Positions 5,165 through 22,318 of a stretch of 52,287 bases of DNA are shown here, piece after piece. The first letter of the stretch is position 1; each line of letters starts with the position of its first letter. The notes beneath the pieces were generated by a model that was given only the letters and a program-made list of their open reading frames with translations, had not been told where the DNA came from and did no database searches. Source of the stretch: a virus; IMG/VR virus record IMGVR_UViG_3300025000_000023; one strand, written 5' to 3'. The position numbers were made by a program, and so were the translations under genes.

Positions 5165-6611
5165 ACACAAACTCCTCCTGATATACTCTCTTCGGTCGCT
5201 GAAACTCAGCGAAGCTCTCCACATCCATATAGTTGTCATAGCCGTAATTTGAATTGCTATGCACGATATGCAGTTCCTTCTTGGCTCGTGTGCAAGCGAC
5301 ATACAAACATCTAAGCTCCGAATCCTCGTGCTTTAGATAGTTGTCACGTACGTTCTTGGTCACGTCAAGCATGACGACCACCTTGTCTGCTTCGCCACCC
5401 TTCACACCATGTATGGTGTTTATCATGAGCCGCCTATCATACACATTCGGTCTGTGAGCAATCAAGTCCCTGTAGTAGTTTGCATCATCAATATCAAGAT
5501 TGAATCGCTTGTACCAAGGCTCTGTGTTGCCCATGTCATTGCGCAGAAAGTGCGCTGTCACGAGCCTATCTACTTCACTCTTATAGTTACCTGTCTTACG
5601 CATCTGCTCATATGCATTGATTGCCCTGATGACTTTTTCATCGACAGAATGCTCGGTTTTGTCAACATAAGCAAAGCCTCTTTTCCGTAGCATCTCCCTG
5701 TACTGCTTGAGATACATATTGTTTCGTGACAGGAAGTAATAAGATGACGTTGCATCAATCTCGATGTCTTCAATGCTGTTATGAAAGTATACTATACCAC
5801 CCGACATGTTTGGAGCGAACTTCTTCTCTACACGTTGGCTCATCATGTCGGTTATGTGTGTCGAGAAGTTCAGGATGTGTGAGGGCATACGGTTGCTCTT
5901 CTCAAGCACCACTTTGTTGCCAGCAAGATTCAAGAAATGCTCAACGTCTGCACCGTTCCATTCATAAATTGCTTGGTCATCATCACCTGCAATGTACACG
6001 TGATCACAATCACCGAACGCAATCTCACACATCTTCCACTGCAACGTGGTCAAGTCCTGAGCCTCATCAATGATTGCAATCTTTACTGGCACTGGCTGTC
6101 CTGATTCAACAAAGAACGAAATCATGTCAGTGAAATCAGCATAGCCATGGCGTGCCTTGTACGCATCATAGCTCTTCGCCACAACTTCAAACGAGCGCAT
6201 GTTGATATCAAGCGCACAGCTCTCAGCCGCTTTGGGATTGTTCTTGCGTAGGAAATAATAGAACAGATACTTGTCATCATCGCTGTTGAAATCCTCAGTG
6301 TAGTATCCTGTGAAGTTCATGTTCATGAGGTCTGAGAATTGTTTGTACTGCTTGCGCCCCATAATGTCGTCACGTGCAAGTTGAGCCTGTGCATACGCTA
6401 TCGAGTGCAGTGTCCTGAAATACGGAAACTCCTCACTCGCATATCCAAATCTCTCCATCGCACGTGTTCTACCCTCATAAGCACCCTTCTTGGTGAACGA
6501 CACGAAAGCTATCTCTGATGGTTTGTAGTCCTCAAGAAGTTTTTCGAGAAGGTTCAATAGATACCAAGTCTTGCCACAACCTGGCCCTCCGTATATGATT
6601 GTCTGTTTCAA
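5157..6611 (-). CDS. Superfamily 1 (UvrD/Rep-like) DNA helicase
   Basis: Walker A GGPGCGKT, Walker B IIDEAQDL, TIHGVKGGEAD and VACTRAKKEL motifs are present. Confidence 0.9.
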   Translation of the reverse strand: MKQTIIYGGPGCGKTWYLLNLLEKLLEDYKPSEIAFVSFTKKGAYEGRTRAMERFGYASEEFPYFRTLHSIAYAQAQLARDDIMGRKQYKQFSDLMNMNFTGYYTEDFNSDDDKYLFYYFLRKNNPKAAESCALDINMRSFEVVAKSYDAYKARHGYADFTDMISFFVESGQPVPVKIAIIDEAQDLTTLQWKMCEIAFGDCDHVYIAGDDDQAIYEWNGADVEHFLNLAGNKVVLEKSNRMPSHILNFSTHITDMMSQRVEKKFAPNMSGGIVYFHNSIEDIEIDATSSYYFLSRNNMYLKQYREMLRKRGFAYVDKTEHSVDEKVIRAINAYEQMRKTGNYKSEVDRLVTAHFLRNDMGNTEPWYKRFNLDIDDANYYRDLIAHRPNVYDRRLMINTIHGVKGGEADKVVVMLDVTKNVRDNYLKHEDSELRCLYVACTRAKKELHIVHSNSNYGYDNYMDVESFAEFQRPKRVYQEEFVYE

Positions 6612-19424: not shown

Positions 19425-19661
19425 CTATTCGTGCGGATACGGGTCATCATTGACCTCGCATCCAATCTTCTCCAGCAAACTCAAGTGCACACGCTTGCTC
19501 ACACTATCATGAACAATGTGTGCATATCCACCATTGATGCACGCCACACGCCAGACCGTTCCAGCATACCTCACAAACTCGTCAGGTGCAAACTGCTGGT
19601 GCACATACAATTTATTCATGTCGTGCACTCCTGTGTCCTCGTCAATCACGTTGATTTTCAC
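19425..19661 (-). CDS. Hypothetical protein (78 aa, GTG start)
   Basis: GGGAGGG lies 5 nt upstream of the GTG start. Confidence 0.55.
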   Translation of the reverse strand: MKINVIDEDTGVHDMNKLYVHQQFAPDEFVRYAGTVWRVACINGGYAHIVHDSVSKRVHLSLLEKIGCEVNDDPYPHE

Positions 19662-19774
19662 TTTGCCCTCCCTGTGTCATAATTGGTGTGGCACACCCTG
19701 TACGATGCACCACACCCCGAACCATGAGACCACGGATAATCGATGTGATAAGTCACTCATACGAGCAGACTTTA

Positions 19775-19920
19775 TGTGGACGGTAGGATTTGAACCTACA
19801 ATGACAGTGTGTTTCGTGTATCCACGTTTTCAGCTTTCTACAGGGTGTATCCTGCAACGAACAGCCCTACTTTCTGTCTCGCTAACATCGCATAGCGTTT
19901 ACCAATTACGCCACGTCCAC
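19775..19920 (-). tRNA. tRNA-like gene (Asn-GTT-like loop) with about 72 extra nt in the anticodon/variable region
   Basis: The acceptor stem GTGGACG/CGTCCAC is 7 of 7 paired. The D arm is GCGT-AATTGGTAA-ACGC and the T arm is GTAGG-TTCAAAT-CCTAC. The total is 146 nt, against about 75 nt for a normal tRNA. Confidence 0.55.
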
Positions 19921-19926
19921 GATGAA

Positions 19927-20259
19927 CTATCTACTTATAACTTCCATGTCTTCGGAATACAATATTGTAGTGCCTCTGTCTGTCCTCACAACCTTGTCCC
20001 ATCCATTTGATACCATATTGCAGTGCAGAATAGTATCAACTGCAACATCGTTTAGCGTGAGAATCTTTCCATACACAACTTCCTTTCCGACTTGTATCCA
20101 CACGCCTTTCAGTACCTCACCTGATTCCGAAATGAGCTCCTCACGCTCCACAACTCTGTGCGCAAAGCACCCTGATGGAACAGACTCATTCATCGGAATA
20201 CGTTCCGAATCGGAACACATGAAACCAGCATAAAAAACTTCTCTCATTTGTACTTTCAT
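19927..20259 (-). CDS. Hypothetical protein (110 aa)
   Basis: The start is coupled to the upstream stop (ATGA overlap). Confidence 0.6.
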   Translation of the reverse strand: MKVQMREVFYAGFMCSDSERIPMNESVPSGCFAHRVVEREELISESGEVLKGVWIQVGKEVVYGKILTLNDVAVDTILHCNMVSNGWDKVVRTDRGTTILYSEDMEVISR

Positions 20260-20561
20260 GCTTCTTTCTCCTTTAGGTCAAGCACTGCAATCTCATTAAA
20301 TACAGTTCTCCAATACACACAGCCCTCATTGCTTGTCGTCCACAAGAAGGCATGCAACAACAGGTACATGTCCAATCGGCTCTTGTGACACTCCACAAGC
20401 TTGCTGACACGCCTCGCAACCTCCACATCACATGCATCCATGATGTTTGCGATGAATGCACGCCGCACGCCGTATGACAATTTCTTCCAATCATCAAACT
20501 TATGCAATTGGTACACCACCGTTGCGTGCATCTGCTTTCTTGTTTGTAGCGCATCTTTCAT
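20256..20561 (-). CDS. Hypothetical protein (101 aa)
   Basis: GGGAG RBS present. Confidence 0.6.
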   Translation of the reverse strand: MKDALQTRKQMHATVVYQLHKFDDWKKLSYGVRRAFIANIMDACDVEVARRVSKLVECHKSRLDMYLLLHAFLWTTSNEGCVYWRTVFNEIAVLDLKEKEA

Positions 20562-20732
20562 TTGAATGCTCCCTTTTTATGTTTTAAGCTCAGCACAGAC
20601 ATCAAGATTGCTACGCTTGCATAGTCTAAGTCAGCTTCAGGCTCACGAAAGTTTATGTATGTGCACTTCCCTACTTTATCATTTTTACGGTGAGCCTTAT
20701 CCATTGAATTCATCTTCTTTCGCCATGCAAAC

Positions 20733-21251
20733 TCATCTGCACTTGGATTCCACCTTGCGCTTCAGCAATCTCTTCACAGCGTGCAGGTTGCAGTGATGTT
20801 CGTCCTCATATAGTTTCATGACACGCTCCACATCTTGGTCTGAGAACTCATACAGGCCATCACCTACAGGTTTTGTGCAATCCTGATAGTACGACTTACT
20901 GCACACCTCGTGCGCCCCGTCCCATAGCGTGTACTCATCGCCCTCACGGAATATCAGAACTACTTTTCCATCCAAGTCATAGCGCACGGCGCACTCCAAA
21001 ACTTCGATGAACATAGTTTCGTTCGTGTCAGGTCTTTGGAAATGACGACATGATTCATGACTAATTGGCTCTCTATCCGTTGCACAATCAATGATGTTAC
21101 GCATGAAATAGCATAAGTGACATGATTGCACACCGTTCTTGAACTTTACTGGTCGATAGCAACTATCCACAACCAGTAGCCTCACATACTTTCCTTCGGA
21201 CTTGTTATAGTACGTGAAAACTTCTCCGACCTTGTGAAACTTTCTCTTCAT
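20733..21251 (-). CDS. Hypothetical Cys/His-rich protein (172 aa)
   Basis: AAGGAG lies 7 nt upstream of ATG 21251. Confidence 0.65.
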   Translation of the reverse strand: MKRKFHKVGEVFTYYNKSEGKYVRLLVVDSCYRPVKFKNGVQSCHLCYFMRNIIDCATDREPISHESCRHFQRPDTNETMFIEVLECAVRYDLDGKVVLIFREGDEYTLWDGAHEVCSKSYYQDCTKPVGDGLYEFSDQDVERVMKLYEDEHHCNLHAVKRLLKRKVESKCR

Positions 21252-21282
21252 AGTATGCTCCTTATTTGATACGTGATACAAT

Positions 21283-21457
21283 TACGAGTGACAGGATTTG
21301 AACCTGTAAGAATGATGCTTCAACGTTCTCGTGAACTCCACACCATTTGAATCTCGCCACATAACAGGGTATGCTGGTTTCCTTGTTTTGTTATAGGAAT
21401 GTGCAAATTACATATATCGTCATATGGTTTAGCGTATGCCGTTTCCGCCACACTCGT
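21283..21457 (-). tRNA. Second tRNA-like gene with about 101 extra nt in the anticodon/variable region
   Basis: The acceptor stem ACGAGTG/CACTCGT is 7 of 7 paired. The D arm is GCGG-AAACGGCAT-ACGC and the T arm is ACAGG-TTCAAAT-CCTGT. The total is 175 nt. Confidence 0.5.
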
Positions 21458-21560
21458 ACAGAAAATTTAGGTGCTACAATCATTGTAGCTGATGTAGCCT
21501 AGTCATGCTCCACTGGCATGTGGTTGTACATCTGGTTATTATTTGATTCATGAAGTTTGG

Positions 21561-21758
21561 CTACATGTACCAAAGACATGCGCTTGCGACATATCCACCG
21601 GAATACTCCGAGGAAGATTGTACGTTGCACGATACTATGTTCGTGATCACTTCTATTGCATCGGGTAGCACGTATGCTACAACTACAACAAGTGCCATCA
21701 CCACGACAATGAACATGCACAGTATCAATACAAAAGCACCAAAATCATGTATTTTCAT
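21561..21758 (-). CDS. Possible small TM protein (65 aa)
   Basis: From the internal ATG the product starts MKIHDFGAFVLILCMFIVVVMALVVVVAYVL. Confidence 0.35.
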   Translation of the reverse strand: MKIHDFGAFVLILCMFIVVVMALVVVVAYVLPDAIEVITNIVSCNVQSSSEYSGGYVASACLWYM

Positions 21759-22029
21759 TTGGGCTCCTTTTCGGTGCTCTTTTCTTAGGGACGTACGGCA
21801 CACAGTAGTCGCTGTGCACGTGGTACTCACAAACTTCACCACTTTTATTCTTCACTCTTGCCACTCCAAAATCAGGAACTGTTTCAAACTCCGCTATTTT
21901 CTTGTCACAGTCACGTTGCCATGTGTCATGCTCACGCAATTCCTTCACCAGCTCATTTTCTTCCTTTCTAAGTCTGGCGTGTGAATCCTTTGCGTACTGC
22001 TCGATAGTGAAGCGCATTTTAGTTGCCAT
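21745..22029 (-). CDS. Hypothetical protein (94 aa)
   Basis: AAGGAG RBS present. Confidence 0.6.
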   Translation of the reverse strand: MATKMRFTIEQYAKDSHARLRKEENELVKELREHDTWQRDCDKKIAEFETVPDFGVARVKNKSGEVCEYHVHSDYCVPYVPKKRAPKRSPNENT

Positions 22030-22069
22030 GCTTTTTCTCCTTGTTTGTGTACAATTATCAAATTCGTAT

Positions 22070-22318
22070 TTATTGTTCTTCCACGATTCTTTCCAAGTGC
22101 TCCGTCACATACTTCTGGTATGCACGTTCTGCGTGTTCCATCGCTTTCTGCAACGTGTTGCACCTGCCACACGCTAGCTGTTCCTCAAGGTCGTGCATCT
22201 CCCACTTATACGAGCCACCAACAAACATAACCTCTAAGTATCGATTGAAAGGCATGTCCACGTTCCATATAGCACTGTTCGCCACACTGTGATTCCACGT
22301 TACTTTCTTGAACTTCAT
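22070..22318 (-). CDS. Hypothetical protein (82 aa)
   Basis: The start is coupled by an ATGA overlap behind GGAGGGTGAAGAA. Confidence 0.6.
   Translation of the reverse strand: MKFKKVTWNHSVANSAIWNVDMPFNRYLEVMFVGGSYKWEMHDLEEQLACGRCNTLQKAMEHAERAYQKYVTEHLERIVEEQ

Follow-up and report, generated by a model that had tools for sequence, protein, structure and literature searches.

Introduction

Transfer RNA (tRNA) genes of phages are usually explained by codon usage or by the replacement of host tRNAs that were cut by defence nucleases. A non-decoding RNA that keeps the upper half of a tRNA fits neither of these explanations. Phage T4 encodes a partly tRNA-like RNA, the species 1 RNA or rnaC (AF158101, 70908–71046), which is 139 nucleotides (nt) long and consists of a terminal stem, two hairpins of 60 and 26 nt and a canonical T arm, and its role is still described as unknown (PMC3014915; PMC12685909). 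Here we describe el2, a tRNA-shaped element of 175 nt on the minus strand (21283–21457) of a viral DNA of 52,287 nt (IMG/VR record IMGVR_UViG_3300025000_000023), the whole of which is referred to as the window. The same operon contains another tRNA-like gene, el1 (19775–19920, minus strand, 146 nt). Among known kinds of RNA, el2 fits best with the tRNA-like stable RNAs of phages, as a new variant of these. From its sequence we propose, with confidence that is about evenly divided for and against, that el2 encodes a tRNA mimic which does not decode and which derives from a class II, leucine-type tRNA.

Like el2, T4 rnaC is phage-encoded, has a terminal stem beside a canonical T arm (CCGGG-UUCGAAU-CCCGG) and has no anticodon. 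In both RNAs two long hairpins fill the centre, which in rnaC includes the places of the D, anticodon and variable arms, and the layout of terminal stem, two hairpins and T arm within 120–180 nt is found in both. The rnaC gene sits in line with genes of the tRNA-processing pathway and within a cluster of real tRNAs, whereas the phage of the window has none. No sequence similarity between rnaC and el2 was detected, in that they share no family in Rfam or in R1, a covariance model that we built from nine members of the family discussed below; no direct comparison was run.

Class II tRNA-Leu (RF00005) has in common with el2 a 7-bp acceptor stem, A73, U8-G9, a 3-bp D stem, the T arm and a two-arm centre, and the D loop of el2, GAAACGGCAUA, is close to that of tRNA-Leu, whereas el2 has no anticodon stem-loop, is 175 nt long instead of 85–90 nt, lacks CCA and is missed by ARAGORN and by the Rfam threshold. 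Both el2 and the tRNA-like domain of transfer-messenger RNA (tmRNA) combine an acceptor and T arm with a larger RNA domain that takes the place of the anticodon arm, but el2 has a G:C pair at 3:70 and a D stem, and it has no resume codon or tag frame. In intron-containing tRNAs (bacterial tRNA-Leu with a group I intron and archaeal tRNAs with a bulge-helix-bulge (BHB) intron) extra sequence lies between the D and T arms as it does in el2; however, no exon halves of el2 rebuild an anticodon arm beyond chance, and there is no group I core. The GUGGACG family, named here after its acceptor strand, has been found in viral and metagenome contigs only and is similar to el2 in its tRNA upper half and its two-hairpin, non-anticodon centre of variable length, but its acceptor and T stems are different, its CCA is encoded and it lacks a D stem.

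Structure of the el2 RNA

Read directly from the minus strand, el2 is ACGAGUG-UG-GCGG-AAACGGCAU-ACGC-U, followed by 123 nt and then by ACAGG-UUCAAAU-CCUGU-CACUCGU-A, which bears out the 175-nt reading given in the preliminary description; nucleotide p of the RNA corresponds to window position 21458-p. The acceptor 5' strand ACGAGUG (nt 1–7; 21451–21457) pairs in 7 of 7 positions with 21284–21290, within the 3' segment CACUCGU plus discriminator A73 (21283–21290), and the U at 21458 could give an extra U(-1):A73 pair. The next segment (21432–21450) consists of U8-G9 and of the D arm, GCG(G)-AAACGGCAU(A)-CGC, in which A14 and G18G19 are found, as seen in the sequence and in a fold with the core enforced. 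The T arm ACAGG-UUCAAAU-CCUGU (21291–21307) has 5 of 5 stem pairs and contains G53:C61, U54, U55, C56 and A58. All nucleotides of the tRNA L shape are present, and the full acceptor pairing and canonical T arm that had been noticed before are confirmed. CCA is not encoded; AUUG comes directly after the 3' end.

From D stem to T stem el2 measures 124 nt. With the core enforced, this part folds into a 71-nt hairpin (nt 31–101), a 9-nt linker and a 37-nt hairpin (nt 111–147), followed by CUU and the T arm. The first hairpin, Domain I (21357–21427, minus strand), is imperfect and stands at the position of the anticodon arm, with the basal stem CCAUAUGACG/UGUUAUGUGG and an 11-nt apical loop, AUAACAAAACA, and its stability corresponds to a z score of -2.5 with boundaries that were picked after folding. 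A 5-bp anticodon stem with a 7-nt loop carrying U33 is absent from the folds of el2, and the strand AAACC indeed has no GGUUU partner, as was described before. Since there is no anticodon stem-loop, el2 cannot read a codon. The second hairpin, Domain II (21311–21347, minus strand), occupies the position of the variable arm, with the basal stem AAUGGUGU/GCAUCAUU and the inner hairpin GUUC-ACGA-GAAC. The surplus of about 101 nt in the preliminary description depends on the reference, being ~100 nt against a 76-nt tRNA and ~90 nt against a class II tRNA.

We used a shape scanner to assess the tRNA shape, with the criteria of a 7/7 acceptor, a D stem of 3 bp whose loop contains GG, a T arm of 5 bp with the loop TTCRANN, and a length of 68–260 nt. 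It found exactly two sites in the window, el2 and el1, whereas 200 dinucleotide shuffles of the window gave a mean of 0.025 sites and never two or more, so the tRNA shape is real. The idea of a second tRNA-shaped gene is therefore supported by the scanner, although the standard detectors miss it. ARAGORN with default settings called no tRNA gene in the window, so the phage is without an ordinary tRNA. The Rfam tRNA model (RF00005; threshold 29 bits) matched el2 only partially (16.1 bits, model positions 5–66, E = 6.9), and in the search of the whole window el2 gave no match at E ≤ 1. The threshold was reached by el1 only (41.2 bits), with 84 nt replacing the anticodon arm.

Comparison with the sister clade

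The comparison loci, which are viral or metagenome contigs, were labelled L001–L044. In a sister clade (L001–L004 and L013) an element of ~78 nt (L002, ~5892–5969) lies at the position of el2, between the same 65-aa and 170-aa genes, and reads ACAAGCG UG GUGAACGGCGCU G AAUUGGAGU-CAUACGUUGUAU-ACUCCGAUU GUAGG UUCAAAG CCUAC CGUUUGU A. It has a 9-bp rod in the place of the anticodon arm and no 7-nt anticodon loop. The sister-clade version of the 172-aa protein encoded downstream of el2 is 84% identical, and among 5.8 billion proteins this protein forms two 90%-identity clusters only, the window's own and the sister's.

Five of the 12 acceptor and T-stem pairs differ between el2 and the sister element. 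Four of these changes are compensatory, two in the acceptor (ACAAGCG/CGUUUGU in the sister) and two in the T stem (GUAGG/CCUAC), one is from G:C to G:U, and none of the pairs is broken. The centres (124 nt in el2, ~26–32 nt in the sister) are unrelated: 714–830 of 1000 shuffles reached the observed alignment score, and Domain I has no counterpart in the sister clade. Stems kept by compensation around unrelated centres indicate that the helices were maintained while the intervening sequence was replaced. Even if the two elements were acquired separately, both are anticodon-less and perfectly paired. The contigs of the window's own clade are all identical across el2, and an exact scan with the 3' half of el2 gave no match in IMG/VR.

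Origin of the el2 core

A degenerate scan with the 3' halves of el2 and the sister element retrieved, besides the sister element, ordinary phage genes for tRNA-Pro(UGG), tRNA-Leu(UAG), tRNA-Tyr, tRNA-Ile and tRNA-Met. The first 27 nt of el2 (ACGAGUGUGGCGGAAACGGCAUACGCU) are nearest to class II tRNA-Leu(UAG) genes, such as those of L036 (GCGAGCGUGGCGCAACGGCUGGACGCGU) and L034, and the acceptor resembles phage Leu and Pro tRNA genes. The D arm is similar in sequence to those of the tRNA-Leu genes in L036 and L034 and follows GUGGCGGAA..GG.A.ACGC, the classic pattern of bacterial tRNA-Leu. The two-armed centre of el2, which matches an anticodon arm plus a long variable arm, would be accounted for by descent from a class II tRNA.

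All leucine identity features that can be checked from sequence are present in el2, namely A73, U8-A14, G18-U55 and G19-C56. As el2 has all the nucleotides named for leucyl-tRNA synthetase (LeuRS), leucylation is plausible. For LeuRS the anticodon arm is dispensable, and its deletion costs just 2.5-fold in affinity (PMC2377443).

Two prophage-derived IMG/VR contigs, L028 and L031, carry a tRNA-Pro(UGG) gene minus 5 nt of the anticodon arm, where a tetraloop hairpin CUUG-GACG-CAAG is found, and in the related contigs L029, L032 and L042 the tRNA-Pro gene is intact. Additionally, an unrelated IMG/VR phage with ordinary tRNAs has a 122-nt tRNA-shaped element (L033, 3810–3931), whose acceptor is paired 7/7 with two G:U pairs and whose centre of ~70 nt is accompanied by both a D arm and a T arm.

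Relation of el2 to el1

Previously, el1 and el2 were thought to share blocks of insert sequence and to represent one functional, duplicated RNA family. The strings themselves are present: ATAC(AC)CCTGT occurs at 21364–21372 in el2 and at 19840–19850 in el1, TCATT precedes the T stem, and GTGGA..CACGA..AAC, which is part of Domain II, lies at 21325–21341, one base off the coordinates given before. However, when the two inserts were aligned locally, the observed score was reached by 456 and 392 of 1000 dinucleotide shuffles under two scoring schemes, so the alignment is no better than chance, and a pattern made from the shared blocks had no match in IMG/VR. The cores also belong to different tRNA lineages, as the 3' half of the el1 family is close to phage tRNA-Tyr and el2 to tRNA-Leu(UAG) and tRNA-Pro(UGG), and the sister-clade centres are unrelated. 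We conclude that the shared blocks are chance similarities, that el1 and el2 are not duplicates, and that the conserved part is the tRNA upper half and not the insert. An alignment at chance level was also the outcome that had been named beforehand as refuting the proposal. Of the earlier proposal, maintenance by selection in place of random decay still looks supported, whereas a single duplicated family with a common insert is not. We also considered a mobile or repeated insert and rejected it, as a search of the rest of the window and of L001–L042 gave no significant copy of the el1 or el2 centre.

The acceptor of el1 (GUGGACG/CGUCCAC) and its T arm are common to a virus-only family of 93–115 nt. 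Using the 3' half of el1 as a query in IMG/VR and JGI metagenomes, we retrieved nine distinct sequences of this length from lake and other environmental phage contigs (L008, L015, L016 and L019–L025; e.g. L020, 3797–3896), together with the sister-clade version of el1 (94 nt, with a different centre) and one ordinary tRNA-Tyr(GUA) whose T arm and 3' acceptor strand are identical. The nine members have an invariant acceptor and T arm, an encoded ACCA, no D stem, two hairpins and eight covarying pairs. The end of their first hairpin, which is either a tetraloop (UUCG, CUUG or CGUG) or an internal loop AGUA/GAA with an extra hairpin, is clearly not an anticodon loop. In the Rfam tRNA search the two members that match score 28 bits against the threshold of 29. 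The 3' part of the family is ~90% identical to annotated phage tRNA-Tyr genes, and no member was found in 185,579 species genomes, which were scanned for the UUCAA-type T loop only and later for the whole family. R1 scores family members at 104–122 bits and el1 at 39.3 bits; in el2 it matches the T arm only (10.9 bits, E = 2.9), which places el2 outside the GUGGACG family. The family loci are flanked by variable metabolic genes (radical SAM, DctP, fatty-acid desaturase, AMP-binding enzyme) and by a conserved block including an IF-1 homolog. An origin from a host tRNA or attP site was rejected, as the 3' half of the el1 family occurs in 0 of the 185,579 genomes (el2 was not scanned) and no integrase was found among the open reading frames (ORFs) scanned.

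Anticodon-less elements with perfect stems occur at the el1 position in three clades. Taken together, the comparisons with the family, the sister clade and L044 indicate that anticodon-less tRNA derivatives, el1 among them, are a recurring and maintained feature of phages. In L044, which is less closely related to the phage of the window and in which the neighbouring protein is only 45% identical, the positional homolog of el1 (2650–2758, 109 nt) has a different centre again, with the acceptor GGGGAG/CUCCCC and two extra hairpins between the D arm and the arm UGAGU-UAUUAAG-ACUCA, with the loop UUA at the anticodon position and A at 33.

A non-coding stretch of ~110 nt on the 3' side of el1 (19662–19774, minus strand; L002, 7115–7215; L044, ~2760–2868) is better conserved than the tRNA-like element itself and persists even in L044. 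It contains the palindrome GTGAC(T/G)TATCAC and a strong 9-bp hairpin GGUGUGG...CCACACC, and it may be a promoter, an operator or a second RNA element.

Proposed processing and role of el2

El2 would be co-transcribed with the neighbouring genes on the minus strand, as no promoter or terminator of its own was detected. By the rules of tRNA processing, the minihelix of acceptor and T arm and the D/T elbow would allow host RNase P to cut the transcript at its 5' end, whereas the 3' end would be trimmed by RNase Z or by exonucleases before CCA, which is not encoded, is added. The predicted product is a stable RNA of ~175 nt in which the 71-nt and 37-nt hairpins replace the anticodon and variable arms, and its excision would, as a by-product, also part the upstream and downstream mRNAs.

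Because el2 cannot read a codon, its activity would rest on the acceptor, the T arm and the elbow, and the central hairpins appear to be tolerated, fast-evolving filler and not the functional part. The role that we favour is that of a mimic or decoy which competes for a host factor whose recognition of tRNAs does not involve the anticodon. Such an RNA may be leucylated, or it may titrate a tRNA-targeting enzyme.

Alternative explanations

Several observations weigh against el2 being a tRNA mimic. The stability of its whole centre is only weakly above random (z = -1.4), which suggests a role of the insert as filler, with the active part elsewhere, and would fit a recently disrupted gene as well, whereas the centre of rnaC has a z score of -5.1. 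The likeness to rnaC is in layout only, as rnaC has no D arm and 5 of 7 terminal pairs and el2 has a full D arm and 7 of 7. The argument from compensatory changes comes from a single comparison, as no more than two versions of el2 were found in the databases searched, and the two could be independent arrivals at a hot spot instead of orthologs. A partner protein for el2 (ligase, CCA enzyme, synthetase-like protein or Ro) was not found in the window. TerL does not point to one kind of host, being 44% identical to Rhizobium phages and equally to Methanoculleus viruses.

Two other explanations remain serious beside a tRNA mimic. A decaying class II (Leu-like) phage tRNA gene that is heading for deletion, whose anticodon and variable arms were lost to recent insertions or rearrangements and whose stems are intact merely because this was recent, is a real but minority possibility. 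It would agree with the low structural signal of the centre and with the fact that this centre shares nothing with the sister clade, and neither a further tRNA nor an enzyme related to tRNAs was found in the phage; phage tRNAs with a damaged anticodon arm do exist, as in the 5-nt deletion of tRNA-Pro in L028 and L031. However, decay would not repeatedly spare the stems, and in el2 all of the ~25 positions of the L-shaped core are intact. The sister element is also anticodon-less with perfect stems through its four compensatory changes, a second anticodon-less element lies in the same operon, the elements at the el1 position are perfectly paired in three clades, and the family that shares the el1 stems covaries. 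Alternatively, el2 might be a pure processing signal (tRNA punctuation), which recruits RNase P and RNase Z to cleave the polycistronic transcript between the genes of 65 aa and 172 aa and releases an RNA without a function of its own; we regard this as unlikely. The element is intergenic, its neighbours all lie on its own strand, neither a promoter nor a terminator was called nearby, the ribosome-binding site (RBS) of the downstream gene begins ~20 nt past the 3' end of el2, and a hairpin 15 nt before the predicted RNase P site (21473–21489) could shield the new 3' end of the upstream mRNA; a freely varying centre would also be expected. RNase P and RNase Z accept substrates that are much simpler than a full tRNA shape, whereas el2 has kept A14, G18G19, the whole D arm and A73, which is more than cleavage needs, and in the el1 family the identical acceptor and T-arm sequences across unrelated phages and the encoded CCA point to an RNA that acts in trans. 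Punctuation overlaps with the proposed tRNA mimic and may be a part of it.

It is very unlikely that el2 is a functional tRNA from which an intron of ~83–100 nt is removed after transcription. ARAGORN -i200 did call both elements of the window, el2 as tRNA-His(GUG) with an 83-nt intron at 32/33 and el1 as tRNA-Phe with a 55-nt intron. However, controls in which the centre was shuffled and the core kept were still called as intron-containing tRNAs in 208 of 300 cases (69%) for el2 and in 233 of 300 for el1, so this call is uninformative. Strict BHB candidates, with flanking helices of at least 3 bp, numbered two in el2 and none in el1, and no strict excision yielded a product that ARAGORN accepted. 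When helices of 2 bp were allowed, one site in el2 gave products that were called tRNA-Leu(GAG) or tRNA-Thr, but the relaxed pipeline was also positive in 78 of 200 el2 shuffles (39%) and in 41% of the el1 shuffles. An archaeal BHB intron was rejected on these grounds. Furthermore, the anticodon stem proposed by the intron call has an A.C mismatch, the position of the intron is non-canonical, and a 24-nt unstructured "variable arm" would be left. An Rfam search of 19600–21650 gave no match at E ≤ 10 to a group I intron, tmRNA, Y-RNA-like RNA or ribozyme, and 83–100 nt is smaller than known group I introns. A 7-nt anticodon loop is likewise missing from the short ortholog in the sister clade. 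The equal distance of TerL to Methanoculleus viruses and to bacterial phages leaves room for an archaeal host that has a splicing endonuclease, whereas PolA, the UvrD-like helicase and the Pam3-like genes favour a bacterial host.

Some further RNA classes were tried for el2. tmRNA was rejected, since pair 3:70 is G:C and not G:U and neither ARAGORN -m nor the Rfam tmRNA models gave a match at el2. A small peptide encoded within el2 was rejected as well, as the 43-codon GTG frame (21320–21451) has no RBS. Skipping-rope RNA (RF02924) is characterized by a 3' terminator and an association with DUF3800-type genes (PMC5737381); with its threshold at 36.7 bits, the window gave no match at E ≤ 10 and no terminator was called, and this class was rejected too. 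In the sister clade, the el1 homolog of L002 (7021–7114) matches skipping-rope RNA at 20 bits against 36.7 (E = 0.13) and includes GAGAUG before the last hairpin, which is probably a likeness in cloverleaf shape only.

Wider implications

It is conceivable, if on balance doubtful, that tailed phages carry a widespread, virus-specific and overlooked class of anticodon-less tRNA mimics of class II Tyr and Leu origin, which keep only the acceptor, the T arm and the elbow and would be CCA-tailed, perhaps aminoacylated and non-translational. The T4 species 1 RNA, el1, el2 and the UUCG-capped RNAs of lake phages would be its members. The purpose of such RNAs could be to soak up host defence enzymes that target tRNAs, or to donate amino acids to a phage enzyme. 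Being invisible to tRNA finders and absent from Rfam, they would have gone unannotated. If this functional class is real, it would offer a handle on the 50-year-old question of the role of T4 RNA C and would point to host factors that read the elbow or the acceptor, such as RNase P, the CCA enzyme, LeuRS and nucleotidyltransferase or acetyltransferase toxins. Should el2 turn out to be just a disrupted tRNA gene, the finding would be an ordinary one.

Genome context and additional observations

The phage genome of ~52 kb comes from a groundwater metagenome assembly (ENA ERZ909597, run SRR1658469, contig k127_44153), and a nucleotide search against 50,697 phage records gave no match for the window. 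The left arm encodes on the minus strand functions in replication and nucleotide metabolism (PolA, a UvrD-like helicase, an AEP primase, ThyX and a MazZ-like diphosphohydrolase), together with numerous small ORFs without known function. The right arm encodes TerL and, judged by position and ORF size, probably the structural genes. PolA is ~32% identical to proteins of proteobacterial phages, and a bacterial host is likely, as is indicated by PolA, the UvrD-like helicase and the Pam3-like genes. El2 sits in a 309-nt gap within a long array of small minus-strand genes in the non-structural arm, with the 65-aa gene upstream and the 172-aa gene downstream.

A terminator scan of 19500–22100 gave 0 terminator-like sites, and no sigma-70-like promoter was called near el2. 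The hairpin with a U-rich tail that had been described immediately 5' of el2 is present on the minus strand (21473–21489; GCUACAAUGAUUGUAGC, then ACCUAAAUUUUCUGU) and ends 15 nt upstream of the element, but it fails the criteria of the terminator scan. It is possible that it acts as a weak terminator-like element, or that it stabilizes the 3' end of the upstream mRNA after RNase P cleavage.

The ThyX gene adjoins the gene for the MazZ-like dATP/dGTP diphosphohydrolase (PF18909; 13545–14789, minus strand), and the pair recurs in the relative L044. PurZ was not seen among the ORFs scanned, and a genome with modified bases is possible but not indicated. Finally, another hairpin upstream of el2, CAUGC-CAGUGGA-GCAUG (~21508–21524, minus strand), is kept in the sister clade (L002, 5826–5842) despite the divergent spacer.

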